A stretch of DNA of 64,000 nt. Origin: Phycisphaera mikurensis. GTDB taxonomy: Bacteria; Planctomycetota; Phycisphaerae; WQYP01. Each line of letters begins with the position of its first letter. The first letter of the stretch is position 1. The notes beneath the pieces were generated by a model. The model had not been told where the DNA came from and ran no database searches. It saw nothing but the letters and a program-made list of their open reading frames with translations. Location: contig DZDI01000001.1 of assembly GCA_022730455.1 (NCBI GenBank), forward strand, positions 4,829 to 68,828. Direction: 5' to 3'. A program made the position numbers and the translations under genes. Positions 1 through 20,275 of this stretch are shown in pieces.

Positions 1-1
1 G

Positions 2-556: not shown

Positions 557-857
557 CGGTTGTCGATCAGGAACCGCTGGTTTTAGCACATGAGGGTGAA
601 ATTTCAGTCCATCCATCGGGCGGCATTGTCCGCAATGCTTTGACGCCGCCGCCCGAACCCGCATTTGCGGGTGAGAGCCGCCAACCTGCCATCGTGGTGA
701 AGAACGCCCGGTTTGTCACCGTCCGCGATAATCACATGGCCCATACCACGCGCTACGCCAATCCGGCGGTGGTCATTAAGTGACGACTTGCGCATAATGT
801 GGATGATATGGTGGCTGCAAGCGTTCCGCCGGATGGTAATGCACGGAGGATAAACGG

Positions 858-2711
858 ATGAAATGGCGACTGTTAGTCGGTTTGTTCGTAGCCACAATCC
901 TGACGGGGGCGGCAATGGCATCTGCGTGGCACCCCGCACCATGCCGATTAATGACTCGATGGGCACGCCAAGTGCGGCCCGACCGTGTTTGGACGCATTA
1001 TCCCCGGCCGCAGATGCGTCGGACTGTCTGGAAAAATCTCAATGGTTTGTGGCATTATTCCATCACGTCGCGCCACCAATCAGATGCGCCTAGACGCTGG
1101 GACGGTCAGATTCTTGTGCCGTTTTCCGTAGATTCGGCTCTCTCCGGCGTGGGTAAAGTCATGTTACCCAGTGATTGCATCTGGTACCACCGCCCGTTTT
1201 CCATTCCAGCGAGCTGGCATGGAAAACAGATTCTGCTGCACATTGAGGCCGCCAATTGGGAAACGTGGATATATGTCGATGGCCACCTCGCAGCGCGGCA
1301 CCGTGGGGGCTATTCACCCATTACGGTCAATATCACACGCGACTTGCGGACAGCGACACACCATCAACTTACCATTCGCGTCTGGGACCCGGCGGGCGAA
1401 CGCTTTGAACCTCGCGGAAAGCAGGTGTTACGTCCGTCGGGTATGTATTTCACCGAGTGCAGCGGCATCTGGGGCACGGTTTGGCTTGAACCCGTAGGCG
1501 CCGCGCACATTGCATCCTTGGTTATTGTGCCGCATCTGAGACGGAAATTATTCGCCCTTAAGGCCGTCACCGCCGGAGCCGGGGCGAAGGGGTTGACCAT
1601 CCGCGCCGTGCTCCTCGAAGGCAATAAAAAATTATCCATTCGTATGGGCCATCCCGGCCATTTCATCAATCTCGCCGTCGTACACCCGCATTTGTGGACC
1701 CCGCACTCCCCATTTCTCTACAACCTGGACGTAACGCTTTTGCACCAAGGTCACGTTGTTGACCGCGTGACAAGCTACGCAGGCATGCGTTCCATCACCA
1801 TCGGCCCCGGCGTTGGAGGACGCACTCAAATATTGCTCAATGGTAAACCTGTCTTTCAGCGCGGCCTTCTCTACCAAGGTTACTGGCCGGCCGGGCTTTA
1901 CACACCGCCGGGCGATCGTGCCATGGCGTGCGATATCAGCACAGCCAAACGCATGGGCTTTAATATGTTCCGTGTTCATCAAATTGTGGAACCACGGCGC
2001 TTTTATTATCTTGCGGACCGGCTGGGGTTATTAATCTGGCAGGATATGCCGGCGGCGTGGCCTCCGGGGAAGCGCGGTCTCACACACGCGCAAATCCGAA
2101 AGCGGATATTGGCCGGTGGTAACTGGGGTGCTATTGGCCCCATACCCGCGTATGAGCGGCGTGAATATCGCAGCGAACTTACTGCCATGATTAAGGAACT
2201 TCGCAACGATCCGTCCGTTGTCGTATGGACACCATTTAATGAAGGATGGGGTATCCATAATGTTCCCGGAATCGTTCATCTGATTCATCAGCTTGATCCC
2301 AGCCGCCTCATCGATGCCGACAGCGGTGTTAATGTCAATCCCATTTACAAAAACTATTACCAGATACCCGGCAACGTGGTGGATATCCACCATTATCCCG
2401 GGCCGCGCGCCATCGCCCCCTCTCGCACCCAAGCCGCATCGGCCGGAGAGTGCGGAGGTGTATGGTATCCCGTTGTGAAACATTATTGGCCGGATACCCC
2501 AATATCGCGGCCGCACAGTCGATCTGCTGCCCTCGCACGTTACCGCAAAGATTGGCGCGAGGCGTGGCAATTGCGGCAGCGCCTGGGTATTTCCGCCATT
2601 GTGTTTACTGAATTAATGGATCAGGAACAGGAGATCGGCGGCTTGCTGACCTACGACCGTGTACCGAAATTTTCCATCAGAACCATTCGGCACATCACGT
2701 TAAATCGGTAG
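858..2711 (+). CDS. Secreted glycoside hydrolase, family 2-like (clan GH-A)
   Basis: N-terminal signal peptide (MKWRLLVGLFVATILTGAAMASA); GH2 sugar-binding jelly-roll motifs (IWYHRPFSIPASWHGKQILLHIEAANWETWIYVDGHLAARHRGGYSPITVNIT); TIM-barrel region with RVHQIVEP..LADRLGLLIWQDMP and acid/base-like TPFNEGWG. Confidence 0.7.
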   Translation: MKWRLLVGLFVATILTGAAMASAWHPAPCRLMTRWARQVRPDRVWTHYPRPQMRRTVWKNLNGLWHYSITSRHQSDAPRRWDGQILVPFSVDSALSGVGKVMLPSDCIWYHRPFSIPASWHGKQILLHIEAANWETWIYVDGHLAARHRGGYSPITVNITRDLRTATHHQLTIRVWDPAGERFEPRGKQVLRPSGMYFTECSGIWGTVWLEPVGAAHIASLVIVPHLRRKLFALKAVTAGAGAKGLTIRAVLLEGNKKLSIRMGHPGHFINLAVVHPHLWTPHSPFLYNLDVTLLHQGHVVDRVTSYAGMRSITIGPGVGGRTQILLNGKPVFQRGLLYQGYWPAGLYTPPGDRAMACDISTAKRMGFNMFRVHQIVEPRRFYYLADRLGLLIWQDMPAAWPPGKRGLTHAQIRKRILAGGNWGAIGPIPAYERREYRSELTAMIKELRNDPSVVVWTPFNEGWGIHNVPGIVHLIHQLDPSRLIDADSGVNVNPIYKNYYQIPGNVVDIHHYPGPRAIAPSRTQAASAGECGGVWYPVVKHYWPDTPISRPHSRSAALARYRKDWREAWQLRQRLGISAIVFTELMDQEQEIGGLLTYDRVPKFSIRTIRHITLNR

Positions 2712-2797
2712 CACCTGACGCGGATCGTTCGGGCGCTGCCGCCACCATCGCACGCTCGGCGCGGCTCGCATCCACGCAAACGCCTCCGGCGGCAAAC

Positions 2798-3679
2798 TCA
2801 TCGTGCGGATCGTTTTAGGCGCTTAATCATCACGGTCCAACCGGCATTGCTCGGTGGCGGTGAAATATGAAATGAATGGTGCATGACTTTGTTGACGATG
2901 ATCTTGGAAAATACTGCTGTGGTGGGCGTACCGTCCGGATCAACCCGGCGGATTGAAATCGGCAATTGCAGTCGTGTGCTGATCACGAATGTCAACGAGT
3001 CAAAAGTAAAGGCCTTCGGGTTTTTCGGAATCAGTTTAATGGCAACGGTATGGCGGGGCTGATGCTTCATCTGCACGACCGTTATCTTGAATTCCCGCAG
3101 CACTGTCTCCGGCCTCTGACCAATGGGAATGGGTATCGGCCCCTCGCCCAGTTTAAGCGGATTAAAATGCGCACCCGGCGGGGCAACTTCTATCTTGCGG
3201 TAAATTTTGGCTGATCCATTGCGGTCGATGAGCCACCGTCCGTCAAAAATAATGTCATGATCGGCATGGTGCCGGGCAATGGCGCCATCCACCGCCAATA
3301 TGCTGAAGTGGATGTCAAAACGCGTTCGGCCATTTTTGGTACGCTGGTACCAAATGCGCCCCATATTGATATCCGTCTCACCCGACCGCAAATGATTCAC
3401 CGTGACCCGCACGTCCGCCTTGAAATTATGGAGGGTCTTACCGCGGTGGTACAGCATGGTCAGCAGACGCATCACTTGCGGGCTTACCGGCGCGGCCACC
3501 TTTTGTGCCATCGCGGGGCGGTGTGTCGTCACCGCCTGTACCGTCAATCCCGGGGTTGCGGCCATCGCAGCCAACGCCGCCACACTTGCTGCCGCCACGC
3601 GCATAGGGTTCAAGCCTTGCCAGCGGTGCCAGCCAGATATGGCGAATATCCAAGCTTTACTCACAAAGGTCTGAATCAT
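2798..3679 (-). CDS. Secreted hypothetical protein, possibly LolA-like lipoprotein-carrier fold (real start may be the internal M at 3604)
   Basis: 293-aa ORF with internal signal-peptide-like segment MRVAAASVAALAAMAATPGLTVQA; start codon overlaps the stop of the upstream HAD gene (ATGA coupling); no diagnostic catalytic motif. Confidence 0.4.
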   Translation of the reverse strand: MIQTFVSKAWIFAISGWHRWQGLNPMRVAAASVAALAAMAATPGLTVQAVTTHRPAMAQKVAAPVSPQVMRLLTMLYHRGKTLHNFKADVRVTVNHLRSGETDINMGRIWYQRTKNGRTRFDIHFSILAVDGAIARHHADHDIIFDGRWLIDRNGSAKIYRKIEVAPPGAHFNPLKLGEGPIPIPIGQRPETVLREFKITVVQMKHQPRHTVAIKLIPKNPKAFTFDSLTFVISTRLQLPISIRRVDPDGTPTTAVFSKIIVNKVMHHSFHISPPPSNAGWTVMIKRLKRSAR

Positions 3680-4305
3680 GATGCCCTCTTCACACGGACC
3701 GCATAACGGTCAGGTTCTTCCGCCAACGCCACCATATCTTCCAGCGACTGAATATGAAAATCCGCATCGGCGGCAAAATGAGGCGGTGGTGTGCCGGGTT
3801 CAAGCAGTAAAACGCAGCGCACGCCCGCCGCCTGCGCTGCTTGAATATCAAAAATATAATCCCCCACCATTAACACCCGGTGAAGTTCAACGCCTAGCCG
3901 CCGTGTAATCCGCCAAATGCTCTCCGGGTGTGGCTTCATCGGCAGATCATCGCGACTGGCGATATGGTCAAAATCCAGTGAATGGCGGCCCAGGATGGTT
4001 TCCACACTGCGGCGGCTGTTCCGCGACAGCAGTGCCGTGCGGATACCCAGCGACTGCAGGCGGTACAACGCTGGTTTGGCGCCAGCACGCAACTCCGAAG
4101 CCAGCGCCCCCTCATGTTCAAACTGATGCAGCGCGTCCCAGGCGGCGGCTTGCTTTTCGGGCGGCAATTCTGCGATCCACTCCAATACCGGCTCGCGCAG
4201 CTCAATGCCCAGCCGCTGGCGCAAGTCCTGAAAATTTAGTGCGTCAATGGTGAGGGTGCCATCCATATCAAAAATAATCAGGTCAAAATGACGTGGTCCA
4301 TTCAT
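3676..4305 (-). CDS. HAD-superfamily hydrolase (subfamily IA-like phosphatase)
   Basis: Motif I FDMDGTL close to the N-terminus (start chosen at MNGPRHFDLIIFDMDGTL), motif II/III residues (LLSRN.., MVGDYIFDIQAA) typical of haloacid dehalogenase-like phosphatases; listed ORF extends to 4371 but the canonical start is 4305. Confidence 0.7.
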   Translation of the reverse strand: MNGPRHFDLIIFDMDGTLTIDALNFQDLRQRLGIELREPVLEWIAELPPEKQAAAWDALHQFEHEGALASELRAGAKPALYRLQSLGIRTALLSRNSRRSVETILGRHSLDFDHIASRDDLPMKPHPESIWRITRRLGVELHRVLMVGDYIFDIQAAQAAGVRCVLLLEPGTPPPHFAADADFHIQSLEDMVALAEEPDRYAVRVKRAS

Positions 4306-4670
4306 ACTTCCGATTATAGTCCCAACCCCGTTTTCTTTGATGGTCAACCGCGCAATGATTGAGATATCCACATCGCGGCGATATCCTCGCTGTCAATCCT
4401 AATTTGTAGGTGTGACAGAGCACTGTCGCCTGCTGGTAAATAAATGGCTTGCATATCCGAGCACGGCTAATTACCATCTCTTGGTATGTTCGTGAGGCCA
4501 TCGGCCGCAGTGTTGCCGTCGTTTCACAATCGCTTCACTGAACTTATTGTGGTGTCGAGGTCTTTCATGGAGGAATCGCCTTGGCTCAGGCCAGTAACCA
4601 TCCCCGACTTCCGATGATTCCGTGGGGCGACGTGCGCCGCCGCCCGGAGGATCGAGGTTCCAACAGTGTC

Positions 4671-5072
4671 ATGGAGATACACTGTCCACTCTGTGGGCAG
4701 GTGCTTAAGGTACCATCCCGGGCCATTAACACACGATGCACCCATTGCCATAAACATCTTTATCTTGAAAATATCGTCATCGCCGACCTTTCGGGCCGGA
4801 CACGCATCAACACATGCGGCGATGTGGTGATCGAGGCTAATGGACGCTTTTCGGGTGAATTGCAGGCCAACTCGGTGCATGTGTCAGGACGAATGATTGG
4901 TTCCATGGTGGCTACGCAACGTGTAACGATTACACGCACCGGTAAATTTGCCGGTGTCATCGCCACCCGCGAACTGCAAATCGCCCCGGATGCGATCTTC
5001 CAAGGGGAGGCATTTGTACTTCACGAGGACGAATCCGTTACCCACGTGCAAGGCGATCCCATCGGGGCTTGA
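4671..5072 (+). CDS. Zinc-ribbon + bactofilin-like (polymer-forming cytoskeletal, DUF583-type beta-helix) protein
   Basis: CPLCGQ..CTHCHKH Cys4 ribbon followed by repetitive beta-helical segments (VVIEANGRFSGELQANSVHVSGRMIGSMVATQRVTITRTGKFAGVIATRELQIAPDAIFQGEAFVL) characteristic of the bactofilin/CcmA fold; ORF opens at 4581, likely start MEIHC at 4671. Confidence 0.5.
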   Translation: MEIHCPLCGQVLKVPSRAINTRCTHCHKHLYLENIVIADLSGRTRINTCGDVVIEANGRFSGELQANSVHVSGRMIGSMVATQRVTITRTGKFAGVIATRELQIAPDAIFQGEAFVLHEDESVTHVQGDPIGA

Positions 5073-5177
5073 AGTGGTTGTCCAAGATGACAGACCGCAT
5101 TTTAGCCCGCGCCTGCGGTTGGATATGAGGTTCCACCACGCAGTTGTTGATTGGGCAACCGCCACGAAGTGCCTGTT

Positions 5178-5492
5178 TTAATCGGTAATGTCGGCAAGAC
5201 GGCTGACACTTGTGACGTGGGACCTGTGAATCAGAACCCGGGCACGATTCGGACGGACTCCCAAATCCCGGGTTTGTAAAAGGTAAAAATCCTTGGTGCT
5301 GCGGCTATCGTTCATGTCGTGCACGTCGGCTTCGCAAAGCTCCAAAACGTGCGGGGTTATCCGCAACAGCTTCCCAACATAAATAAGGGGGCTGGCCGTA
5401 TCAAGCACCACAATTTCGCCGGATAATTCTTCTATCGGGTCGATTTTGGCCGATAAACCAAGATAGGATGACTCTGATGCTTGTTCATTCAT
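5178..5492 (-). CDS. Hypothetical small protein (104 aa)
   Basis: Intact ORF in an otherwise non-coding interval between two + strand genes; no recognisable motif. Confidence 0.3.
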   Translation of the reverse strand: MNEQASESSYLGLSAKIDPIEELSGEIVVLDTASPLIYVGKLLRITPHVLELCEADVHDMNDSRSTKDFYLLQTRDLGVRPNRARVLIHRSHVTSVSRLADITD

Positions 5493-5626
5493 TGATCGGT
5501 TCCTTGAGACTCACGCTGCGCAGGATTATAGTGCCATCTGTAGGGATCAGGGAGGCTTCAATACGTCGGGCTACCGATGTGCAATAATGTCAGGGCGGTC
5601 TCGGACTGCTGTTTAGGGGTAGAATT

Positions 5627-6679
5627 ATGGATCGATTGGTAGGCGGAAACAGACGGCCGGTGGCTATCAAAATGCTCATGCTTGGGTTTACCGTGGCGAT
5701 GGCTGCAGAAGTGATGTGGCCCGCAGCGGCTTCTGCGATGACCGTCGACCAGCACATCAGGATGCTGCAATCCGAGATTAGGCCGGGGCAAGCGGTGGGG
5801 CATGTAGCGCTGGCGCAATATCTTTACGACCATTACATGTATTCGCGGGCGTTGACCCAGGTCGATGCGGCACTGTCCATCAATCCCAACAATCAGAATG
5901 CCATTCTCCTCAAATCGCTGATAGCCGCGAAGATCAAAAATGGTGGTGAGGTGGGAAAAACGCAGGCAAAAAATCATTCAGGCAAGACGACCGGCGGCTT
6001 GTTGACCCCGGAAGATATCAACCGCATCCGGCTTGTGGAATGGTCCGTTTCAGAACAACATCCTATGCGCGGCGTGATTCTCAAGCGGATCAAAACCCTC
6101 CACGCATTCTGGAAGCAATGGATAGCGCCCAATCCGCTTTACCAGTCCCTGAATTTAACCGAAGTCAATTACAAGAATTTTTTGCGGCTGAATAATTTTG
6201 CCCGTCAGGCGTCGCTGATTATGCGCATCGGTGATCCAAAATTTACCAAAATGATCGTTGTGCGAAATAACCCGGACGCCATTCGGCTCTTTCGTACTAC
6301 CATTCAACCGTTTGTCCTGCAAAGCTGCAGCACCGTGGGTTGCCATCGTGGTCAGGACTTTCACGGGTTTAAATTGTTTGGTGCGAGGACTACCCCGAGC
6401 ATGGCGCAGACCTATACCAATTTTTATATCCTGTCAAAATATTCATATCGTGGCCGAAAACTTATTGACCGGCCCAATCCGTACAATTCATTACTGATTC
6501 AATATTTGATGCCGCACAAGATTGCTGCAGTGGTGCATCCCGGTAAAAAGCCTCTGATCTATCGCAGTTTTAATGAAAAATCGCTGCTATCGTGGATATC
6601 GTCCCTGGCATTTCCAACGCCATCCTATGGAATCAAGTACAAAATGCCGGTATCCAAACATACGCGTCAATCGCATTAG
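5627..6679 (+). CDS. Secreted hypothetical protein (350 aa)
   Basis: N-terminal hydrophobic signal-like region (VAIKMLMLGFTVAMAAEVMWPAAASA); Cys-containing segment CSTVGCHRGQDFHGF; no family assignable from sequence. Confidence 0.45.
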   Translation: MDRLVGGNRRPVAIKMLMLGFTVAMAAEVMWPAAASAMTVDQHIRMLQSEIRPGQAVGHVALAQYLYDHYMYSRALTQVDAALSINPNNQNAILLKSLIAAKIKNGGEVGKTQAKNHSGKTTGGLLTPEDINRIRLVEWSVSEQHPMRGVILKRIKTLHAFWKQWIAPNPLYQSLNLTEVNYKNFLRLNNFARQASLIMRIGDPKFTKMIVVRNNPDAIRLFRTTIQPFVLQSCSTVGCHRGQDFHGFKLFGARTTPSMAQTYTNFYILSKYSYRGRKLIDRPNPYNSLLIQYLMPHKIAAVVHPGKKPLIYRSFNEKSLLSWISSLAFPTPSYGIKYKMPVSKHTRQSH

Positions 6680-6912
6680 CGGTCCGCCCGCGGGCAGGCG
6701 ATGGCATCAGGCGTGCGCGATCGGTCTTTCAAGCCGTTGAACAGTTAACTCCGGATTTGTTATGCGGCGCTGCGTGCCGGTCGGCGAATTGCGGCGTTTG
6801 TCCCGCTGATACGCGCGTTCCGTTCGCGGGCTGTGCGTTATCTGGCACATACGCACATCTGGTGCACAGACCGGCTGATCCCGGTGGCGGTCCCGGCGGG
6901 AATTGACTGATT

Positions 6913-9756
6913 TCAGTGGCGCGCGGCATCAAGTTCCACAAGGCGATTGGTCCTGGGATTCCATCGCGCGAATACTTTGTCGCCAGTGTTAAAGGGTAAG
7001 GGACCAACCTTAAACCAGCTCTGATCGGGCCATACCTTTCCGACAGGGTCCCGCACATACGCTGGCTCACCCAGTGGCCTTGACGGCTGGCCTTCCAGTG
7101 TGACCAGCGGCAAAGTGTAAGGCGTTATGGGTGTCAAGTGAACGATAGACGCAGTTGCGGTGCCTCTACGAGCCAGAATATGTGTAGCCGAAGAATCCTG
7201 AATAATTAGTGTAAGGTCATCACCGGGCAGAATGTCGGCCAGCGAAGCGTCTCCTTCGGATTGGCCATTTTCCTCGATGGTGATCGGAGCCCGGAGGCCA
7301 ACCGGTATCGCTACTCCAGTGACTCCCAGATCGTATGGGTCAAGATAGAGTTGTTCGGCTGACACGCCACGGCACTCTCCAGTCTGTGTCCGGTTCTCTG
7401 GCTTCGGCAGCCACTCTTGAGATGGAGGGATTGCCGAATCTGTATGCCGGTGCAAGATTATTCGCGCAAGATTGTAGCATGTTCGGAACGAACCGGATGT
7501 AAACAGGCGCTTCGCCATATCCAATTGACGTCTCTCTTCCTCGCTGATAGCGTTGGGGTGAATCGATTCAACCAAAGTGAGGCTCCAAGCAGCGTCGGCA
7601 CGCCATCCCACGATGCTGGCTTCCGCCCTTAAACGGTCACCGCTGTAACTGCGATTGGAAGCTACGAGGGCTTCAAGATTTCCCGGCCATTCCTGTTCCA
7701 ACGCGACGCCGAACAGGGATACCCAGTCCGGCCAGCCGGAAGGGTGAAAATCAAATGCCACCCACATTTTACCGGAATTTTCAGCCATATCTCCTAGATC
7801 CAGTTGACGCGTGGCAATTCCGCTGTTAGACATCTGATCGACTTTTCGGAGATTTCCCCGACTGGTACCGGCGTACACGGTCAGATGACTGCTGGTGCTA
7901 TTCTGGCGAAAAACAAAAGCTCGCGCGGTATAAGAAAGAAGTATTTTGCCGAAAGTGTCCTTGCCCGTGAGATTGCGGCTTTCAAAACACATCAACAGAC
8001 GAGTGGACGTGTTTAACCGTGTGGAGAATAAATGTTTGCCGCCTTGGGGCCAGTCCTTCAGCACCAGTCCAGGCCCGGTTCTGAATGACACCGCATGTGC
8101 ATGGTGGTTGCGGCTGGTATTCCGAAAATCAAGACGAAAAATTGCCGGTCGCCAGATTTGGGGCCGAAATGCACCCCATCCGGATTTTAGCGAAGGAGCT
8201 ACGTGCTCCAGTTGTGATTCCGACGCGTTGAACAGCGTCAGATAGCTGCAGCCGCTGGCATACGCAGCGTGAACATCGCTCACGACGCTCGATGCCGGGC
8301 TTCCGCCGCATTCCCTATTGACACCAGCGGGAAGGCCGATTTCGCGGAATTGCTCCAGCAGTGCCATATCGCGGAAGATGTCCGCCCATTCGCCACCGAA
8401 TCGGCCATATTTCAGCACGCCAACTTTGGCCGCATCCATAAAGTTTTCAAATAAACCTGCAACGAGATTTATGAATGTATGTGTGTAGACTCGATCCACA
8501 AGTTGTGATCGCCCAAGCCCCTTGCGTATGGCCATGTTCATCCGACTGTTGTAGTACAACAGACTCTGCCGGAGGAAGCGCTTTGCTGCATGGCTTTCTC
8601 CTTGATCCGGATCTAGGTTCACGCCGACCGCCTTCGCCGCTGCCACCATGCTGGGATTAAAGTCCGCCTCGAGACCGGCTGGTGTTCTAGGATTGCCGGC
8701 GACCCAGTACGTTACCTCGTTATCTAATACAACGCTGAATATGCGATTGGCGTCAGCTTGAGGTAATTGCTGGAGCATGGCACCAAACTGCCAAAAGGCC
8801 CCCGATTTGAAGGCATTAAGCCGTTCGTTACGCACCGTAAGCCAAGGCGTGTTACTCCATATATTAGGCACCGAGAGTCCGTACAGCCTCTCTTTCGGCC
8901 AATAAGTCACCTGCTGATAAACAGGGTCGTGCCAACGCCCGCCCACGCCGTCAAATCCACCCGGCGTACCACCCCACCATGTAATGGCCTGTATCTCCAA
9001 TGGCATATCAAAGCGCTTCGACATCGCAATCGCCTGCTTCAGGTACGCAAGCTGACGAGCAGGCAGCCAATCGGCCACAGCCAATGTCGGGACACAATAG
9101 CCAAGCGTCAGATCCGCGAGCTTGGGGAAAAGATTTCTAATACTTGTAAATGTCTCCACGTCCAGATTCTCCATAGTTGGAGCTAAGATCATGGGCTGCA
9201 CCAGTTCTCTGCTCTTGGCAAATACTCCAATTTCCGAATATAAAATAACTTCGGAAAAATGGATTGGCTCCTCACACTTGTTGATAAGCGTTATGTACAA
9301 TTCGGTCGGGTTGGCCAACTTATCAGGGATATCAATAAAGGCAGTGGTGGGGCCGGCGCCATAAAATTGCCGGTTACGAAACGCAATGGCACGTCCATTG
9401 ACTTCCACCACGTAGGCGACACGGCCATCGCTCTGGGGCCGAAATTCCCGCAGCACTAGCGTCAGGGCCTTGGTAATACCACGGGTATTGAGCCGAAAGG
9501 CCAGCCCCACTCCGTCCATCGCAATACCGGGGCCGCGCATAGGAATCACGCGTTCGCCCATTTTCCAGCGGTAGTCATTGATGGGTGTTCCGCCGGTGAT
9601 ATGGCAGGATGGCCAATTACGATGGTCGCCCAAGTCAATTCGATCAACGATACCGGGCACCAGCATTGCCGGGGTATTCTCTTTTTCAGAACACCCTGCG
9701 GTGCCTTGCAGTACGGCTGCCACTGCGGTGGCCAGAAGGAAACGTCGGCGGCTCAT
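6913..9756 (-). CDS. Large secreted/lipoprotein-like hypothetical protein (947 aa), possible carbohydrate-active protein
   Basis: Long ORF (listed 6913..10017); start trimmed to MSRRRFLLATAVAAVLQGTAGCSEK (Tat/lipoprotein-like signal with Cys); sits between GH2 and GH92 genes; Trp/Gly-rich segments (WWGGTPGGFDGVGGRWHDP) but no family-diagnostic motif recognised. Confidence 0.5.
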   Translation of the reverse strand: MSRRRFLLATAVAAVLQGTAGCSEKENTPAMLVPGIVDRIDLGDHRNWPSCHITGGTPINDYRWKMGERVIPMRGPGIAMDGVGLAFRLNTRGITKALTLVLREFRPQSDGRVAYVVEVNGRAIAFRNRQFYGAGPTTAFIDIPDKLANPTELYITLINKCEEPIHFSEVILYSEIGVFAKSRELVQPMILAPTMENLDVETFTSIRNLFPKLADLTLGYCVPTLAVADWLPARQLAYLKQAIAMSKRFDMPLEIQAITWWGGTPGGFDGVGGRWHDPVYQQVTYWPKERLYGLSVPNIWSNTPWLTVRNERLNAFKSGAFWQFGAMLQQLPQADANRIFSVVLDNEVTYWVAGNPRTPAGLEADFNPSMVAAAKAVGVNLDPDQGESHAAKRFLRQSLLYYNSRMNMAIRKGLGRSQLVDRVYTHTFINLVAGLFENFMDAAKVGVLKYGRFGGEWADIFRDMALLEQFREIGLPAGVNRECGGSPASSVVSDVHAAYASGCSYLTLFNASESQLEHVAPSLKSGWGAFRPQIWRPAIFRLDFRNTSRNHHAHAVSFRTGPGLVLKDWPQGGKHLFSTRLNTSTRLLMCFESRNLTGKDTFGKILLSYTARAFVFRQNSTSSHLTVYAGTSRGNLRKVDQMSNSGIATRQLDLGDMAENSGKMWVAFDFHPSGWPDWVSLFGVALEQEWPGNLEALVASNRSYSGDRLRAEASIVGWRADAAWSLTLVESIHPNAISEEERRQLDMAKRLFTSGSFRTCYNLARIILHRHTDSAIPPSQEWLPKPENRTQTGECRGVSAEQLYLDPYDLGVTGVAIPVGLRAPITIEENGQSEGDASLADILPGDDLTLIIQDSSATHILARRGTATASIVHLTPITPYTLPLVTLEGQPSRPLGEPAYVRDPVGKVWPDQSWFKVGPLPFNTGDKVFARWNPRTNRLVELDAARH

Positions 9757-9932
9757 TCTGAGGTGCTGCGCAATTCGCCCATTCATAGCTGCTGGCATCA
9801 CCTCCGATGGTGTCGGCCTAGACCGCATATATACTTCCAGTTTGTTTGCAGACATGCGTGTCGACTCCACTGGCAAAAATCTACGTGAGTAATTGCATGT
9901 GTTCAGAGACGCCCATTCTGGCGTGCCGGTCG

Positions 9933-12317
9933 CTATCTGCCCGCAATCCGAATGCCGCCAGGGGCAACTGAACTGGTGGACATCGACCATGGGCGGGCAT
10001 CGTTTGCGGAACCCCATGCCTTATTAGGTTGTGGGCCTGCGCGCACATCCCAAACGCCGCCATTGGTAATAGTGGACTCCGACATCCAAGGCTTCGCAAG
10101 CTTCTTACCGTTGATGGCACACGATTGAATGTACACATTTTTACCGCCTGCACCAAGGGCGTTGATAACAAATCGTCGCCCCTTATAGGGCGCACGCGGA
10201 TGAATGATTATTTGCTTGAACCGCGGTGTGGAGATGACAAACTGCGGTCGCCCCGGAAATTCCGGGTAAAAGCCCAGTTGCGTTAACACATACCATGCGG
10301 ACATTTCGCCGCAATCATCATTTCCGCCACCCGCCAGACCGCCGGGAGTATCTGTAAACGCTTTATCCGCCACCTGCGCGACATATTTCTGCGCAAGCCA
10401 AGGGCGGCGCGCGTAGTCAAACTCCCAAGGAGCCTCTAGGTCAGGCTCATTGGCCGGGTCATAGTGATGCTCCATGAAATAGCGTAGACGCCGGGCGAAT
10501 GGTTTGTCTCCGCCCAGCAGCCCAATGAGACCTCGAACATCCTCTGGCACCAGCCACAGGTATTCCCACGCGGAGCCTTCACAATAAAAACTGAAGTCAT
10601 ATTGATCCCGACGTTTCTCGGTCAATTTACGCCAAGCACCCGTCGCCGTCTTTCCTTGCATAAACCCGGTGGCGGGATTGTAGAGCGTGCGGTAACCCAG
10701 CGCCCGCTGCGTAAGGTACGCGGCAAGGTTCGGTCGGTGAAATTCTTTGGCAAACTGTGCCAATGCGGCAAAGGCTATATCGTATTCCTCCGCGGTTGCG
10801 ACATTGGTATTCGCGGCTATCGCGGCACCGTGCTGCTCCCGCCAGACACCCTGGTATGGGCCAGGTGCCTGATTGTGCCAGCGCGAAGGTGTGGCGGAAC
10901 CAGCGTGCCACAGTGGACCCTGTCCTTGTCCCACGCACCAATCAGCCGGATTACGAACGATCGTTTGCCGCAGCATGGCTTTCCACGCGCTCTTGACATC
11001 GAAGTTATGAATGCCGGCGTTCCAGATGCTGATCAGGGCGATAGTCAGCGGATTGCCGTTCATCACACCGGTAGAGACGTTGGCCTCCGGCCAGCGATCA
11101 ATGAATCCCTGCTGTTTATACATTTCCACCAGCGATTGCGCCATGTCGGCGGCGCGCTGCGGTTCCAGAATGGCCAGCAATGGAATCTCGCTGCGGTAGA
11201 TGTCCCAACCCGAAAAATTGGCGTAGATGTGCCTATGACCGGTGGGTACATGATGAATTTTGTGGTCGAAGCCGATGTACTGCCCATCCGCATCATCGAA
11301 TATATTGGGCATGAGCAGGGCGTGATAAAGCGCGGTATAAAAAACTGTGCGATGCGTGAGCGATCCGCCCCGCACCTGAATAACACTTAATGCCCTGTTC
11401 CATTTATTCAACGCCGCATTACGGTAGCTGGAGAATTTCCAGCTCGGCATCTCCGCCCTGAGGTTGTCCAGCGCCCCATTCACGCTCACGTAGGATATGC
11501 CCACGCGTACCTTGATAGCCGTTGGCTTTGATTCCGCCGACCATGACACATACGCCCCGATATTGCCGTGCCTGCGACCTTCCGTGGTCGCAGAGGCATC
11601 ACGCGTAACGGCTTGGTTCCTCCAATATCCGTGCGTTTTGAAGGGGCGGCTGAACTGCATAGCAAAATAAACCGTGATCTTCTTCTTGACTCCGCAGAAG
11701 GCCTGCGATGTGACAAATCCCGCCAACGTCCGGTTGTCGACGATCCGCACCTGGCTGGCATAAGTCGGCGTGTTGGCCAGGCTGATGGGAACCAGGACGT
11801 TTCTCCGGGAACCTGCGGGAAATGTAAACCATACCATGCCGCAGCGTGCGGTTGCTGTAAGCTGGGCATTGATTCCCCACGGTTTCATCAATGCTTCGTA
11901 GTATCCGGGAATGGCCTGTTCATCCCGGTGGCTAATTGTAAAATTCCATTGCCGTTGCTGGATTCGCACCGGCCCGGTCGTGGCTGTAAATAGGACATCG
12001 CCGCTGTTTAGGGCACCCGTGCCGCTCATCATGGTCATCGCGAATCCACGATATACCTTTCGGTTATAATCATAGCCGCCTATGCTCAGTTTGGCCGCAA
12101 TGGGATTAACCGAAGCCATCCCGAACGGGACCACCGCGCCCGGATAAGTGTTGCCGCCGTCAGCCGTTCCAATGAAGGGATTCACCAGCACTGCCGGCCC
12201 GCGACTGGTCGCGGCCCGCAGATTTTGCGCGGGAAATAATAGTCCGGTACCGGCCATCACAATGGTGATGAAGATGTACGAAAAAAAACCAAGGCTTACC
12301 TTGGTGGATCGTTTCAT
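9933..12317 (-). CDS. Glycoside hydrolase family 92 (alpha-1,2-mannosidase-like), secreted
   Basis: Signal peptide then GH92 N-terminal signature VNPFIGTADGGNTYPGAVVPFGMASVNP; about 790 aa, the typical GH92 length; listed ORF to 12359, start chosen at MKRSTKV... (12317). Confidence 0.75.
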   Translation of the reverse strand: MKRSTKVSLGFFSYIFITIVMAGTGLLFPAQNLRAATSRGPAVLVNPFIGTADGGNTYPGAVVPFGMASVNPIAAKLSIGGYDYNRKVYRGFAMTMMSGTGALNSGDVLFTATTGPVRIQQRQWNFTISHRDEQAIPGYYEALMKPWGINAQLTATARCGMVWFTFPAGSRRNVLVPISLANTPTYASQVRIVDNRTLAGFVTSQAFCGVKKKITVYFAMQFSRPFKTHGYWRNQAVTRDASATTEGRRHGNIGAYVSWSAESKPTAIKVRVGISYVSVNGALDNLRAEMPSWKFSSYRNAALNKWNRALSVIQVRGGSLTHRTVFYTALYHALLMPNIFDDADGQYIGFDHKIHHVPTGHRHIYANFSGWDIYRSEIPLLAILEPQRAADMAQSLVEMYKQQGFIDRWPEANVSTGVMNGNPLTIALISIWNAGIHNFDVKSAWKAMLRQTIVRNPADWCVGQGQGPLWHAGSATPSRWHNQAPGPYQGVWREQHGAAIAANTNVATAEEYDIAFAALAQFAKEFHRPNLAAYLTQRALGYRTLYNPATGFMQGKTATGAWRKLTEKRRDQYDFSFYCEGSAWEYLWLVPEDVRGLIGLLGGDKPFARRLRYFMEHHYDPANEPDLEAPWEFDYARRPWLAQKYVAQVADKAFTDTPGGLAGGGNDDCGEMSAWYVLTQLGFYPEFPGRPQFVISTPRFKQIIIHPRAPYKGRRFVINALGAGGKNVYIQSCAINGKKLAKPWMSESTITNGGVWDVRAGPQPNKAWGSANDARPWSMSTSSVAPGGIRIAGR

Positions 12318-12330
12318 GCGGCTTATACCT

Positions 12331-13128
12331 TTAATGCTGTTGACCATACTCTTTCTCAAGGGACGCGTCTATCACCTTTATCCGCCTGGGGCTGAGAACG
12401 CCGTTGTAAATTTGAAGTTCGGCGATCTCGCCGCGAAAGAACTCCGCTGGTGTTGCACCGGGACCGGTGGCGGCTGCACCGATAAACCGCAGTGACCGCG
12501 TAAAGGGATCGTGCCCCAGGCACGTTCCATCCGGCCTACCATTGAGATAGAAGGTTCCGCAGCCGGTGTTGTTCGTTGCTACGGCGACCATCGTGAAAGC
12601 ATTGGCGGAAACGGAAGAATGTGATGTTCCAAACGCCGTTGTTGCAGTCCTAAGCAGAACCTGCTTGTCTTGCCCGTTGGTCATTACCTGCATCCGGTAC
12701 TCCAGACTTCCCGGGCCGCCTGCTACGATGGCCGCTGCCGTCCCGGGCTTGCGTCCGGCCGTATCGATAAAAGCCACCACGGTATAGCCTTGGCCGGGCG
12801 GTAAGCTTTTGGATAGTTTCAAGTACTCCCTTTTTCCGTCAAAACCGACTGCCGAGGAACCATTGGCCGTCGCCTTGGCCACTAGTGTGGGCGCAACCGC
12901 CCCTTTGGGTAGACTGGCGCCCCGGTGATCGCTGGATGCATTTTTCCAAGTGCCGGTTGCTGGATTGTAATTGGCAGCCTTATAGTCGGCTAAAAGCTGG
13001 TGGACGCCATGTACGGGTCGAAGCTTCGCCACTAGCGCTCCTGCGGTTATGGTTGTCACGGCAGTAACCGCGACAACCATAACACTGAGTTGGTTCAACA
13101 ATACGCTGCAATTTTTTGGTGCCGCCAT
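12331..13128 (-). CDS. Secreted LamG/concanavalin-A-like lectin domain protein (paralog of 14396..15235, no PEP-CTERM tail)
   Basis: Signal peptide; shares blocks with the downstream paralog (LLADYKAANYNPATGTW / FYLNGRPDG / EFFRGEIAELQIYNGVLS), typical of LamG-like jelly-roll (xxFxGxIxExxIYNxxLS C-terminal strand). Confidence 0.55.
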   Translation of the reverse strand: MAAPKNCSVLLNQLSVMVVAVTAVTTITAGALVAKLRPVHGVHQLLADYKAANYNPATGTWKNASSDHRGASLPKGAVAPTLVAKATANGSSAVGFDGKREYLKLSKSLPPGQGYTVVAFIDTAGRKPGTAAAIVAGGPGSLEYRMQVMTNGQDKQVLLRTATTAFGTSHSSVSANAFTMVAVATNNTGCGTFYLNGRPDGTCLGHDPFTRSLRFIGAAATGPGATPAEFFRGEIAELQIYNGVLSPRRIKVIDASLEKEYGQQH

Positions 13129-13276
13129 GGTTAACCGCCTTTGCGCTGACACGCTCTTGCGTGGTGCGGAGTCTCGCCGCCTGTTGTTGTGAATACCGCT
13201 AAAAAATATACGCCACCCGTGGCTTACCTATTGCAGGTGAGAAGTTTTACCACCAAGTGCACAGCCAGTGCGTTGG

Positions 13277-14266
13277 TTAACGTGCCAAGAAATAGGTATA
13301 GTAAGCCATACTCCCTGGTGAGGCGCTCCAATAGGCGTCGGGATCAGGAAGAACAGTTTCATTCGCTGTTTTCGGCACCGTGGCCACATGGCCATCAAGG
13401 AACGCGACGTTGATGTCTTTGAAGCCGTTATGCACCGCGTTGCCGATTTGTCCGAACTTGCCGCTTGCATCCGGGATATTAAGATTGGCCGGAAGAGGCC
13501 ATATCGTGGAGCAGAAATCTAAAGTCGACACCCCATCCTCCAGCAGCATTGTTCCCGATGGATCGGTCGCGGTTCCCATCCGCGGGCACTCGAAGGGCAC
13601 AGATGGATTACCCGGGATATTCCCCCAACCGTTGTTATAAGGAAAGTAATTAGGGTTGTCGTAGAACGAAGGCATATCTGCGTCAGTGAGCCCAAATATG
13701 GCTGATGTGGCGTCTCCAACAATACTCATGTTGAAACGGTAGTCGACGTATCCGAAGGCGTCGATTATGAATGGGTCATGCTGTGACATGTAGGTTGGTG
13801 CCCAGACATTCGACGATGGACATATAAACACGGCGGGGCTGGACAGGTAGCCTCGGGTGACAAGCACGCTCTGCCCACGGTTTGTGAACGATGCCCCCCA
13901 AGGCCAACCTACTACGCCCGGAGGATTGTTCGGTTCCTGTGGACTCCCGGCTACCACACCCTGATGGGTACCCCAGAGGTATTGGCCAATGCCGGGAGAA
14001 TTGGGGGTGTTGTATTCAAGTGCGCCAGCCACCGCTGAACCCGGAGCAAACCCCTCGTGCTCGTTGGACCACATGAGCGTGGCCAACGCAATTTGTCTTT
14101 CGTTGCTGGCGCAGGCGATGGTGTGTGCCAACTCCTTCGCCCGCGCCAACGCTGGCAGTAACAAGCCAATCAGCAAAGCGATAATCGCAATCACCACCAG
14201 CAATTCCACGAGGGTAAAACCGTGCAGGGATTTACGAGGTGAAAAGGCAAAGCATTTGGTATACAT
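13277..14266 (-). CDS. DUF1559 protein with prepilin-type N-terminal cleavage/methylation domain (type II secretion pseudopilin-like, Planctomycete-expanded family)
   Basis: N-terminus ...[34 protein letters not shown] (class III signal/pilin-like), C-terminal [12 protein letters not shown] matching the DUF1559 H-Xn-DG tail; listed ORF to 14356, start chosen at MYTKC. Confidence 0.75.
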
Positions 14267-14395
14267 AACGTTTCTCCACATCTTGGTCAAAAAGCCCAGC
14301 CAATAGAACAGCTCCCTGTCGCTGCCCCAATGCGGCACCGAAAGCGGCGGAAGCATCCATAAACATCTTGGATGCCCCGCGCCGCCAACATCCCG

Positions 14396-15235
14396 TTACG
14401 TGCTTTGGCGGGTGGCCCGTCTGCGGCTCACAAGCAATAGCCCCAATCCGCCCACCGCCAGCAAGCCCAGTGTCGCCGGTTCCGGCACCGGCGTAACATA
14501 TGAGTTAATAAATGCCTGATCCACCGATTGCACTTGTGTCGAGGTCAAAACACCGGAATAAATTTGCAGCTCCGCTATATTGCCGACAAAAAATTCATTG
14601 GGCGATGCCCCGCTACCCGTATCGCTGGCACCAATAAGATTGATTGGTGAGGTAAAAGCGCTGTTGCCGGTGGTCGTTCCGTCGGCGCTGCCATTCAAAT
14701 AAAACGTGGCCGCACCAAGGTTGTCAGTGGAGACTCCAACCATGCTGAATGCATTTGTCGGTACAGCCGTATTCGAGCTTCCAAAAGCGGTGGTGTCGGT
14801 ATTAAGCAGTACCTGAAAATTATTCCCGCCCGCCGTCTGAATGCGGTATTCCATTGCTCCTGGTGGGCCGCCCACCAACGCATAGTTGCTCCCCGTTGCC
14901 GTTGGCTCGGCGAATGCCAGAACCGTGTACCCACTCCCTTGTGCCAAACCATTGGCGATGGATAGCCATTCACTGCTCGCGCCAAAGTTGACAGCCGACG
15001 AGCCGTTGGGCGTAGCGTCAGCCATAAGCGTCGGCGCGGTAACCCCCGTACCAACGGTGGCAGTATTGCCATTGCCAGAAGAATCAGACCACACGCCTGT
15101 AACAGCGTTGTAGCCGGCTGCCTTATAATCCGCCAGCAATACGGGCGACGCCGACGCAGCGGCCCAGGAAGAAAGTCCTACCGTGGCGATTGTCGCTCCA
15201 ACCAGAATGTGAAGATTCCATTTTATTTTTGTCAT
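14396..15235 (-). CDS. LamG-like lectin domain protein with PEP-CTERM sorting signal
   Basis: Signal peptide, LamG-like core paralogous to 12331..13128, and C-terminal VPEPATLGLLAVGGLGLLLVSRRRA (PEP motif + TM helix + Arg cluster). Confidence 0.7.
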   Translation of the reverse strand: MTKIKWNLHILVGATIATVGLSSWAAASASPVLLADYKAAGYNAVTGVWSDSSGNGNTATVGTGVTAPTLMADATPNGSSAVNFGASSEWLSIANGLAQGSGYTVLAFAEPTATGSNYALVGGPPGAMEYRIQTAGGNNFQVLLNTDTTAFGSSNTAVPTNAFSMVGVSTDNLGAATFYLNGSADGTTTGNSAFTSPINLIGASDTGSGASPNEFFVGNIAELQIYSGVLTSTQVQSVDQAFINSYVTPVPEPATLGLLAVGGLGLLLVSRRRATRQST

Positions 15236-15590
15236 AACCAAAACTCCTACTTTAGTTTTTCCACAATTTGGAAAACCGAAAATGAACCGTCAACTGGACG
15301 GAAACAGATGTGAGCCTCAACTTGAGCCCACACATCTCTCAGCGAAGGACACCGAGGGAATATCCCGGCGCCCGAGGCTACCGAAAACAGTGCTTGTCGC
15401 TTATCACCTCCCTTTCACAATTTCATTGACCGCGCCACGCTGCCATTGCCTCTGTACGAAATTACATGAGACGAACACGCGAAAAGCGGGTGATCGGCAA
15501 CTGCGTGTAAGGCCCAAAATCAACATTTGTACAAGAGCCGATAGGCTCGATCTGGGATGGAGTGTAACACATGATTGATGCCGTGTCAAG

Positions 15591-15638
15591 GTAATTACAA
15601 AAAATCTTCAAAATTTCACATTTATAAAATGTAATTAC
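15591..15638. promoter_or_regulatory. AT-rich operator-like island: two copies of the palindrome (T)GTAATTAC(A) flanking the palindrome ACATTTATAAAATGT; candidate LacI-family operator(s)
   Basis: Seen directly: GTAATTACA at 15591-15599, ACATTTATAAAATGT at 15617-15631, TGTAATTAC at 15630-15638, in the divergent intergenic region between the PEP-CTERM/LamG operon (-) and the LacI gene (+); local AT content far above genome background. Confidence 0.4.
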
Positions 15639-15817
15639 TTAAATGCTTTTGCGTCGGGGGCGCTCGGTGTGCCTGGCAATTGAAAAATCACGGGGCATCC
15701 GCTCCATGACGCTGGCGACATTTGATCTCCTACCCGCTATTATCACAACGATGTATGGAGTCGTCGTGGAGAAATGTGGTGCCGCGCACCCCGGTCGTTA
15801 GTACAAAACCTGCCTCC

Positions 15818-16837
15818 ATGTTGGACGTGGCCAAGCGAGCTTCAGTTTCTGTGGCCACCGTCTGCCGGGTCCTTAATGGAACATCTTCGTCTGCGAAGGT
15901 GGACCAGCGGGTTCGCAGGGCGGTAAAAGAACTGGATTACAGGCATGTGGGACGCAGCAGGTCGCGTAAGGGGCAACCCGCCAGCCAGATGCCCTCCATC
16001 GCCGTCATGGTGTGGGGTAACTATGAATTCTATCCTGATGTCGGAATGGGCCGCATTTTACGCGGTGCCCTTCCGATCTTGGAACAGTCTGGGTACCAGG
16101 CGGTCGTGTGGCCCGCTAAGAACTGGGACGAGGTCATTGCAGATTATAAAAAAAGACGTATCTCCGGCGCAATTTTCTGGAACGCCGTTCCTTTGGAAAA
16201 AAACGTTGCGGAAAGACTTGCCGCAGAACTGGGTGAATTCCGTGCTGTGTGGGTGCTGACGCGCCTGGATGCAGCGGAGTTGCCGTGGGATCAGGTTCTC
16301 CCCGACGATGACCGCGTCGGCGTTCTGGCTGCGGGCTACCTGCTGCGGCATGGACACCGACGCGTTGGTTATGTGAATTGTGAAAATAGTAATCAAGAAT
16401 ACAATGACCGCGCAGTGGGCTTTACCCGTACCATCGTGGGCTCCGGTGGCCATGTTTCTTCCATCATCGATGGGCCGGAAGGAGGTCTGTTGGACCAGTC
16501 GTTATACCGCGAACGTTGGCAGAAGATTGTCAGCCGATTCATCGCGATGTCGCCGAGACCAACGGCCTTGTTTGTCCCCAACGATTACCACGCCATGATG
16601 CTGTATCAGGAATTGGTACGCTGTGGAATCGTTCCCAACCGGGATGTGACGTTGGTGTCGGCGAATAATGATTCGCATTATCTGGATATCCTTCCCCAGC
16701 GAATTGCAACCGTCGACGTCCGTTATGAAGTCATTGGGCACCTTGCTGCAGAGTGGCTGGTTCGCCGGTTGGGCGGAACTCAGACTCTGCCCCGAATTGT
16801 CAGCCTCGTCGATCCGGTCCTTGTGGCGAAGGAATAG
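15818..16837 (+). CDS. LacI-family transcriptional regulator
   Basis: N-terminal HTH MLDVAKRASVSVATVCRVLNG (LacI-type), followed by periplasmic-binding-protein-like sugar-binding fold; listed ORF opens with TTG at 15722, canonical ATG start at 15818. Confidence 0.75.
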   Translation: MLDVAKRASVSVATVCRVLNGTSSSAKVDQRVRRAVKELDYRHVGRSRSRKGQPASQMPSIAVMVWGNYEFYPDVGMGRILRGALPILEQSGYQAVVWPAKNWDEVIADYKKRRISGAIFWNAVPLEKNVAERLAAELGEFRAVWVLTRLDAAELPWDQVLPDDDRVGVLAAGYLLRHGHRRVGYVNCENSNQEYNDRAVGFTRTIVGSGGHVSSIIDGPEGGLLDQSLYRERWQKIVSRFIAMSPRPTALFVPNDYHAMMLYQELVRCGIVPNRDVTLVSANNDSHYLDILPQRIATVDVRYEVIGHLAAEWLVRRLGGTQTLPRIVSLVDPVLVAKE

Positions 16838-16902
16838 GAAATTGGCCGTAATCTAATAACGTGTTCTGCTTCCGTGGGAAATAGAGAAACGGCTTTACGG
16901 CG

Positions 16903-17841: not shown

Positions 17842-17931
17842 TCACCAAGCCAAAATATCGACTTCATATGTTATCCGGCAAGCCGTTACATGGCCATTGC
17901 CGTCGCTTGCATAAACCTTTAACTAGACCCA

Positions 17932-17969
17932 TTGACATTGGCACCCCAAATACCTAACATATACCTAAC
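17932..17969 (+). promoter_or_regulatory. sigma-70-like promoter of the imuA-imuB-dnaE2 cassette with overlapping tandem direct repeat ACCTAAC-N4-ACCTAAC (TAAC-N7-TAAC)
   Basis: TTGACA (17932-17937), 17-nt spacer, TAACAT (17955-17960); repeats ACCTAAC at 17952-17958 and 17963-17969; SD GGGAGG 17979-17984 precedes ATG 17992. Confidence 0.45.
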
Positions 17970-17991
17970 TTTTAAGTCGGGAGGCAGCCGT

Positions 17992-20269: not shown

Positions 20270-20275
20270 GCGTGT

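Follow-up and report, generated by a model that had tools for sequence, protein, structure and literature searches.

The DNA studied here is a stretch of 64,000 nt from Phycisphaera mikurensis (GCA_022730455.1, contig DZDI01000001.1, positions 4,829 to 68,828; hereafter the window). It carries a putative operon of five minus-strand genes that are read away from a LacI-family regulator gene. The encoded proteins are two LamG proteins (LamG1 and LamG2), a prepilin-like protein, a glycoside hydrolase of family 92 (GH92; other GH families are named likewise) and a large protein without family assignment (the orphan). It is moderately probable that this is a sugar-regulated operon of uncultured Phycisphaerae for mannose-containing glycans, headed by a portable lectin-pilin module.

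The putative operon and its regulatory region

Genes were called from a listing of open reading frames (ORFs) and by Pfam and NCBIfam scans of the window proteins. All positions are those of the window.

6913-9756/9786, minus strand: orphan protein gene, about 950 amino acids
9933-12317, minus strand: gene of a secreted GH92 glycoside hydrolase (PF07971, PF17678, TIGR01180)
12331-13152, minus strand: LamG1 gene (PF13385)
13277-14266, minus strand: prepilin-like gene (N_methyl, TIGR02532)
14396-15235, minus strand: LamG2 gene with PEP-CTERM signal (PF13385, PF07589, TIGR02595)
15242-15554, minus strand: long structured 5' leader of about 310 nt, its extent deduced from the promoter
15561-15589, minus strand: predicted sigma-70-type operon promoter (TTGACA, 17 nt, TG-extended TACACT)
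15591-15598: proximal operator-like palindrome GTAATTAC, directly adjacent to the -35 hexamer
15631-15638: distal operator-like palindrome GTAATTAC, the core of AATGTAATTACATT in relatives
15722-16837, plus strand: LacI-family regulator gene, divergent from the operon (PF00356, PF13377)

The unit comprises the divergent LacI gene and five co-oriented genes (6913-15235) separated by 13 to 176 nt. A previous sequence-only reading had recognised the divergent regulator and counted six minus-strand genes in the block; the ORF listing has five. Export signals were predicted for five of five products and include Sec, twin-arginine (Tat)/lipobox, prepilin and PEP-CTERM signals. The sole prepilin gene and the sole PEP-CTERM gene of the 64 kb are both located inside the operon, and the remainder of the window holds mostly housekeeping genes.

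The N-terminal and catalytic domain models matched the GH92 protein full-length above curated thresholds (PF07971, 447.7 bits, E=6.8e-134; PF17678, 202.6 bits, E=1.1e-59). TIGR01180 reached 517.2 bits at a cut-off of 249.6. The presence of a mannosidase-type gene in the block, as read before, was thus confirmed far above the cut-offs. GH92 enzymes are Ca2+-dependent exo-alpha-mannosidases, and the family membership points to a product acting on alpha-mannosides. Orthologs with 80-88% identical amino acids are encoded in the related loci L003 and L033-37, described below.

LamG1 and LamG2 are paralogs with 50% identity, in agreement with the earlier description. Both exceed the cut-off of 27.6 bits for PF13385 (Laminin_G_3), with 55.1 and 60.0 bits for the two proteins and E-values of 4e-16 (LamG2) and 1.2e-14 (LamG1). 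LamG2 is predicted to be secreted, has a ConA-like lectin fold by family and ends in a PEP-CTERM exosortase sorting signal (PF07589, 24.4 bits, cut-off 20.7; TIGR02595, 24.9 bits, cut-off 16). Its tail VPEPATLGLLAVGGLGLLLVSRRR consists of the PEP motif, a transmembrane helix and a basic cluster. LamG1 has an N-terminal hydrophobic signal or anchor and lacks the PEP-CTERM tail. Going by their family, the LamG proteins may bind glycans.

The regulator has an N-terminal helix-turn-helix domain (PF00356, 41.4 bits) and a periplasmic-binding-protein (PBP)-like sensor domain (PF13377, 72.1 bits). Its true start is probably at 15755 or 15818, downstream of the listed TTG (15722). It shares 71-75% identity with the LacI proteins beside the operon in L003, L035/36 and L038.

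The operon promoter has a -35 hexamer TTGACA (15589-15584) and a TG-extended TACACT that ends at 15561, together a consensus match of 10 of 12. Upstream, the palindromes noted before at 15591-15638 were recovered as two self-complementary GTAATTAC octamers, the only two copies in 64 kb. An alignment of the window with L003, L036 and L038, whose proteins are 57-88% identical, has both hexamers and both boxes conserved, whereas the surroundings are not. The core of the distal box is perfectly conserved in these four loci, and the whole box forms a perfect palindrome of 14 bp, AATGTAATTACATT, in L003 and L036. The proximal box occurs at the same position in relatives as the variants TGAAATTA or TGTAATTA. 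The two boxes would fit operators of the adjacent LacI protein.

The leader is structured, with a minimum free energy of -55.9 kcal/mol for 15242-15400 (z=-2.98). It ends with a terminator-like hairpin (15301-15287) and a U-run, about 45 nt before the start codon, and is partly conserved in L036 and L038. No Rfam family matched in positions 1-20000 of the window, leader included. By its predicted structure, the leader may function as an attenuator.

Close relatives share this gene order:

L003 (a Phycisphaerae metagenome-assembled genome): LacI divergent from LamG-PEP-CTERM, prepilin, LamG, GH92 and orphan; proteins 59-80% identical; flanks wholly different
L035-37: LacI, LamG-PEP-CTERM, prepilin, GH92 and orphan, without the second LamG
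L038: LacI divergent from LamG-PEP-CTERM and prepilin, then the contig end inside the prepilin gene
L033/34: non-LamG PEP-CTERM protein, prepilin-like gene, decayed PEP-CTERM tail, 71%-identical prepilin, decayed prepilin fragment, GH3-CBM6, GH20 and 87%-identical GH92

L038 was the single locus returned by a metagenome scan with the LamG alignment. The synteny in relatives on which the earlier proposal depended was found: LacI divergent from LamG-PEP-CTERM and prepilin is common to L003, L035-37 and L038, and the genes of GH92 and the orphan come next in every contig that reaches far enough. The flanks differ from those of the window in L003 and L035, the loci for which flanks were recorded. 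LamG2 orthologs (57-74% identical) are located at the same position in L003, L036 and L038. LamG1 has an ortholog in L003, and tail-less LamG genes analogous to LamG1 are located 3' of the prepilin gene in L013 and L015. The earlier reading described a prepilin-like gene sandwiched by two LamG genes. This triplet was ruled out as the conserved core because LamG1 is absent in L035-37; elsewhere, other PEP-CTERM proteins replace LamG.

Remnants were seen at two loci. In L033, a decayed PEP-CTERM tail (9652-9867) and a decayed prepilin C-terminus (11069-11587) flank the intact prepilin gene. In L035 (7008-8459), an insertion sequence (IS) with a DDE transposase truncates the LamG-PEP-CTERM gene. 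These are signs of cassette turnover.

The prepilin-like protein and its PEP-CTERM partner

The prepilin-like protein starts with a class III signal, HG/FTLVE, with a G/F cleavage site, Glu at +5 and a hydrophobic helix. N_methyl (PF07963) scored 29.7 bits and TIGR02532 24.7 bits, and the N-terminus also matches models of GspG, GspH and ComGC. A long N-terminal helix is followed by a Cys-containing globular domain and a C-terminal H-X11-DGH motif. The subfamily comprises roughly 30 proteins with the invariant residues C53, C150, H280, N287, D292, G293 and H294.

The earlier label of a DUF1559 pilin-like gene held for the prepilin N-terminus; the DUF1559 assignment fell below the threshold (PF07596, E=0.024, 15.1 bits, cut-off 23.3). 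The H-X9-DG model TIGR04294 had no match at E<=0.01, and the motif reads H280-X11-D292-G293-H294. An hhalign comparison with an alignment of bona fide DUF1559 proteins covered the N-terminal 73 columns only (columns 6-78). Like the DUF1559 (PF07596, SBP_bac_10)/H-X9-DG proteins of Planctomycetota and Verrucomicrobiota, the window protein has the prepilin N-terminus, a conserved Cys that follows helix 1, a CP motif in the middle and H...N..F.DGH towards the C-terminus. It differs in the H-X11-DG spacing, the score below gathering and its own small subfamily. On these alignments, it is a divergent relative of the DUF1559/H-X9-DG proteins in a subfamily of its own. The AlphaFold2 (AF2) model was poor (pLDDT 59.8, helix at 20-69). 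A Foldseek search of the PDB with this model returned noise, just the N-terminal helix of gonococcal pilin (probability 0.44).

More distant members of the subfamily (33-57% identity) are encoded in operons of other content:

L009-11: AraC-PBP regulator, HpiC1-like PEP-CTERM protein, prepilin, 433-amino-acid protein with PEP-like tail, GH2 beta-mannosidase, paralog, sulfatase
L012: PATR PEP-CTERM protein, prepilin, proteins of 522 and 253 amino acids, GH4, GFO oxidoreductase, sugar-isomerase-like protein
L013: GntR-PBP regulator, further on HpiC1-like PEP-CTERM protein, prepilin, 516-amino-acid protein, LamG, 332-amino-acid protein, pectate-lyase-like protein
L014 (contig start cut): prepilin, two DUF4838/GH20b-like proteins
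L015: GntR-PBP regulator, HpiC1-like PEP-CTERM protein, prepilin, 548-amino-acid protein, LamG

In all nine assessable subfamily loci, the prepilin gene is directly preceded by a gene for a PEP-CTERM beta-sandwich protein or by the decayed remains of one. Lectin-like genes or genes of carbohydrate-active enzymes (CAZymes) follow 3' of the prepilin in 10 of the 10 loci with a sufficiently long contig. Most subfamily loci have a sugar-type regulator upstream (LacI, AraC-PBP or GntR-PBP).

Controls came from a GTDB genome scan with the prepilin C-terminal alignment, which returned at least 19 loci, mostly distant. The scan was swamped by the common patterns NV.F.DGH and C.SN..QI, and its loci were used as rough controls. 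The comparison covered about 14 distant prepilin-like genes, of which eight are true DUF1559 genes; L029 was the sole case with a PEP-CTERM gene upstream, and GH neighbours were few among the 25 families listed. The contrast of 9/9 with 1/~14 (Fisher p=1.2e-5) is just indicative, given related lineages, controls from different phyla and motif detection by regular expression. An extension of the association to all DUF1559 genes was rejected, as these distant loci rarely have PEP-CTERM genes and few GH neighbours were listed. The link of pilin, lectin and CAZyme genes suggested earlier stands for every examined locus of the prepilin subfamily and is rare in the small sample of distant prepilin-like genes.

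A protein of 516-548 amino acids without Pfam match is encoded directly 3' of the prepilin in L012 (3198-4766), L013 (10649-12199) and L015 (6782-8428). The copies of L012 and L013 are 70% identical. This protein may be a further component of the module.

The orphan protein and other genes of the window

The orphan ORF noted by the earlier reading is present on the minus strand (6913-9756/9786). Possible starts are 9756, 9786 and 9855. A longer reading of 1034 amino acids was rejected because it overlaps the GH92 gene by 85 nt and homologs start near the RR motif. The protein carries a twin-arginine signal and a lipobox-like TAGC. It had no match in Pfam or NCBIfam and none in the PDB by profile (E<=1). 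A word-index search detected just 24 homologs in 5.8 billion proteins. The exhaustive profile search yielded 220 clusters at E<=1e-3 and 121 at E<=1e-30 (clusters at 50% identity).

The AF2 model, built with 22 homologs, is confident (pLDDT 81.6, pTM 0.78) and predicts the following domains:

35-175: beta-sandwich
189-530: eight-fold beta/alpha barrel
538-690: beta-sandwich
706-770: helical bundle
789-944: beta domains

The first sandwich and the barrel form the conserved core of the family. In the fold search, the sandwiches match carbohydrate-binding modules (CBMs), and the best superpositions of the barrel are with families of clan GH-A. The top Foldseek matches of the whole model are multi-domain glycosidases of GH66, GH5 with CBM, and GH35. 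Strand 4 of the modelled barrel (339-345) is followed by N346-E347, and strand 7 (478-482) ends in E482. N346, E347 and E482 do not vary among 22 sequences with identities down to 38%; H426 after strand 5 is also invariant. The model thus displays the signature of clan GH-A, with the barrel, Asn-Glu after strand 4 and Glu at strand 7. This makes the orphan a candidate for a new glycoside hydrolase family. Its identity to the retaining hydrolases of clan GH-A (GH5, GH35, GH39, GH53, GH158, GH164 and others) is just 5-12%. It differs from them in a long conserved insertion at 261-305 and a unique predicted five-domain architecture.

Residues 261-305 (window about 8842-8976, minus strand) are the most conserved stretch of the family, with the pattern WWGGTP..DG.GGRW.D..YQQVTY...YGLSVPN.WSNTPWLT. 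They form a long insertion after barrel strand 3 and the part of the model with the lowest confidence (pLDDT<50). The insertion may be a substrate lid.

Remote relatives of the orphan are extracellular proteins of 1000-2100 amino acids with SLH, Big_2 or F5/8-C domains, otherwise dark to Pfam. The homolog in L005 (about 40% identity) is located in a rhamnosidase/GH106/GH5 neighbourhood. The homolog in L006 (about 40%) has a GH16-like C-terminal extension and adjoins exosortase and glycosyltransferase genes. The homologs in L004 and L006 are both near exosortase/glycosyltransferase clusters. This suggests varied substrate contexts of the family.

The following genes were found ahead of the operon:

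858-2711, plus strand: GH2-like gene with three GH2 Pfam domains
2712-6912, interval with genes at 2798-6679 on both strands: 293-amino-acid hypothetical protein, HAD hydrolase, bactofilin, 104-amino-acid ORF, 350-amino-acid TPR-like protein

The GH2-like gene exists as described earlier. Its sugar-binding, Ig-like and TIM-barrel domains score above gathering but weakly (36-37 bits, E~1e-9), and it does not reach the NCBIfam equivalog threshold. It had been considered contiguous with the block of secreted proteins. The gene is positioned directly 3' of hemA, 4.2 kb from the operon, with unrelated genes on both strands in between, and no GH2 gene is beside the operon in L003 and L033-L038. Membership in the locus was ruled out because of this lack of synteny.

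Four further observations concern genes of the window outside the operon. The bactofilin (4581-5072, plus), located between GH2 and the operon, has an N-terminal zinc-ribbon-like CxxC...CxxC segment. Downstream of the regulator gene, a 281-amino-acid ORF without Pfam match, a Y-family polymerase resembling ImuB (IMS domain) and a Pol III alpha subunit of DnaE2 type (17932-23515, plus) look like an ImuA'-ImuB-DnaE2 cassette for damage-inducible mutagenesis. The gene of a GH116-family glycosidase (41723-44539, plus; DUF608 and GH116 N-terminal domain) is isolated amid housekeeping genes. A putative ice-binding-like adhesive domain (pAdhesive_15, E=3e-25) is part of the protein encoded at 61068-62159 (plus).

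Proposed glycan capture and alternative explanations

A sugar-regulated, exported glycan-catabolic role of the operon is well supported by its predicted gene content. The variant with GH3, GH20 and GH92 (L033) and the variant with a GH2 beta-mannosidase (L009) suggest N-glycan- or mannan-type substrates. The mechanism at the cell surface that we infer is capture by lectin and pilin. LacI would repress the operon via the GTAATTAC boxes, and a sugar derived from the glycan would lift this repression. The exosortase-sorted LamG protein would be displayed on the cell envelope and bind glycan. GH92 would trim alpha-mannose residues and the orphan enzyme, as a retaining hydrolase, would cleave a beta-linked or backbone bond. 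The prepilin-like protein would be processed by a prepilin peptidase and enter a type II secretion or type IV pilus-like fibre. This fibre could present or retract the lectin-bound glycan towards the periplasm, or pass co-encoded proteins to the secretion machinery. The pair of PEP-CTERM beta-sandwich protein and prepilin would be a portable module that heads CAZyme operons of differing specificity.

Several observations weigh against this proposal. The operon structure is deduced from strand, spacing and the single conserved promoter. The count of GTAATTAC is not significant, with two or more copies in 7 of 100 shuffles; the boxes derive their significance from their conservation across relatives. 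They are located upstream of the -35 hexamer, not over the core promoter, and a central CG, as is usual in many sites of the LacI family, is missing from them. The substrate was deduced from the GH92 family membership and the combination of GH3, GH20 and GH92 in L033. Binding of glycans or lectins by the globular domain of the prepilin-like protein has no support from its low-confidence model. Neither pilus or type II secretion system (T2SS) machinery nor an exosortase is encoded in the 64-kb window. Orphan homologs with about 40% identity are found in unrelated contexts or beside exosortase and glycosyltransferase genes. A LamG-PEP-CTERM homolog with 42% identity (L039, 2438-7917) has neither prepilin nor CAZyme neighbours. 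It adjoins genes for PSCyt/PSD/CBM60 and DUF1552 (HXXSHH) proteins, a widespread planctomycetal gene pair of unknown function.

The prepilin might instead be a cargo-specific T2SS pseudopilin that exports GH92, orphan and LamG proteins across the outer membrane, without glycan binding or import, and its PEP-CTERM partner would be another cargo. The matches to GspG, GspH and ComGC, the export signals on all operon products and a diverged prepilin copy in each operon variant are consistent with this explanation. It leaves the strict pairing with the upstream PEP-CTERM beta-sandwich gene unexplained, and T2SS genes are missing nearby in the window. T2SS pseudopilin genes accompany those of the secretion machinery and are not known to occur singly in each substrate operon. 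We regard an export function of this kind as unlikely.

Two further explanations are still less probable. A precedent for sugar-binding proteins with class III signals is the bindosome of Sulfolobus, which is archaeal. Similarly, the prepilin-like protein itself could bind oligosaccharides, be anchored or assembled at the envelope via its class III signal and feed an unlinked transporter. The Pfam name of the related family, SBP_bac_10, and the large extracytoplasmic domain, which contains Cys and has conserved motifs of its own, would agree with this, as would the diversification of the subfamily along with the enzyme content of the operons. The prepilin model and Foldseek gave no support by fold, and no transporter gene was present in any operon examined, which makes this function quite improbable. 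PEP-CTERM/exosortase proteins are tied to the formation of exopolysaccharide (EPS) and flocs. The module could accordingly act on glycans made by the cell itself (exopolysaccharide, floc or surface glycan), by trimming or anchoring, rather than serve nutrient uptake. LamG2 has a weak, sub-threshold match to the floc protein PepA (27.8 bits, cut-off 80), and the orphan homologs of L006 and L004 neighbour exosortase and glycosyltransferase clusters. Against such matrix remodelling stand the catabolic sugar-sensor type of the regulators (LacI, AraC-PBP, GntR-PBP), exo-glycosidase sets typical of catabolism (GH92, GH3, GH20, GH2, GH4, sulfatase) and the lack of glycosyltransferases in the operon and its syntenic relatives. 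Matrix remodelling, too, is quite improbable.

That PEP-CTERM protein and prepilin are an autonomous pair, for example an adhesin, inserting upstream of other operons without a tie to their enzymes would fit the duplication, decay and IS insertions of the cassettes and the CAZyme-free L039, but is highly improbable in view of the order PEP-CTERM, prepilin, then lectin-like/CAZyme gene, which all lineages examined share although their prepilins are 33-75% identical (most with a sugar-type regulator upstream), the single conserved promoter upstream of LamG2 and the short intergenic gaps.

The proposed lectin-pilin capture resembles known systems in part. Polysaccharide utilisation loci (PULs) of Bacteroidota combine SusC/SusD, surface glycan-binding proteins, GHs and a sensor; GH92-rich PULs for mannan and N-glycans are present in Bacteroides thetaiotaomicron. 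In the Phycisphaerae loci, too, surface proteins with a lectin or CBM fold but no catalytic function are encoded together with glycosidases (secreted or lipoproteins) and a sugar-responsive regulator of their own. Loci of different specificity are marked by a recurring pair of genes for non-enzymes, SusC/SusD there and PEP-CTERM plus prepilin here. SusC (TonB-dependent transporter) and SusD domains are absent from the window locus and the related loci. Anchoring is predicted to depend on PEP-CTERM/exosortase and a prepilin signal here and on lipoprotein export there; the regulator is LacI, AraC-PBP or GntR-PBP, and the phylum is a different one. Protein sorting by PEP-CTERM and exosortase was reportedly described by Haft et al. 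2006. LamG2 and the partner proteins elsewhere carry the canonical PEP motif, hydrophobic helix and basic tail. The classic proteins belong to an EPS/floc context, whereas here they are paired with a prepilin gene and head CAZyme operons. The searchable literature, with subscription journals outside its scope, yielded no description of such a pair leading CAZyme operons.

Pilins as 'fishing rods' for polysaccharide uptake by Planctomycetes are a published idea (PMC12078418). In this model (Boedeker et al. 2017), pilin-like fibres bind polysaccharide and pull it into the periplasm. As far as it is set out in PMC12078418, the model was built on the cell biology of Planctopirus and Gemmata and names no CAZyme-linked genes. 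The locus offers the pilin-like genes linked to substrate operons that the model needs. It differs in being genomic only, from uncultured Phycisphaerae, and in the obligatory lectin-like PEP-CTERM partner. In Akkermansia, the pilus genes of the mucin utilization locus MUL2 (Amuc_1099-1102, PilM and a type IV-like pilin) are required for mucin uptake (PMC13174399). Both cases concern the Planctomycetes-Verrucomicrobia-Chlamydiae (PVC) superphylum and pilus-type genes in glycan acquisition. MUL2 exists as one conserved locus, includes assembly genes, does not adjoin GHs, has a pilin of archaeal-type fold and lacks a PEP-CTERM partner.

A more general proposal is tentative: PEP-CTERM protein and prepilin may form a modular glycan-capture and import device of Phycisphaerae, possibly also of other PVC bacteria, in which an exosortase-anchored lectin and a pilin specific for the substrate would cooperate on a retractile fibre as a functional counterpart of SusC/SusD, and the orphan may found a new family of clan GH-A.

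The CAZyme clusters of Planctomycetota are functionally uncharacterised according to a 2024 survey (PMC11131199). The locus addresses the question of how polysaccharides are taken up without SusC/D-type systems in Planctomycetota and relatives. As a simple genomic marker, a gene for a PEP-CTERM beta-sandwich protein with a prepilin-like gene after it and a sugar regulator in front may flag substrate-specific operons. The locus and its relatives provide defined protein pairs as candidates for glycan binding and fibre formation. The orphan family, dark to Pfam, enzyme-like in its predicted structure and about 220 clusters large at 50% identity, may matter for the turnover of mannan or N-glycans. 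If the module is just a secretion accessory or an adhesin, the finding shrinks to an ordinary LacI-regulated GH92 operon. If true, the lectin-pilin device would give a genetic identity to the hypothesised planctomycetal 'fishing rods' and would mark PUL-like operons.

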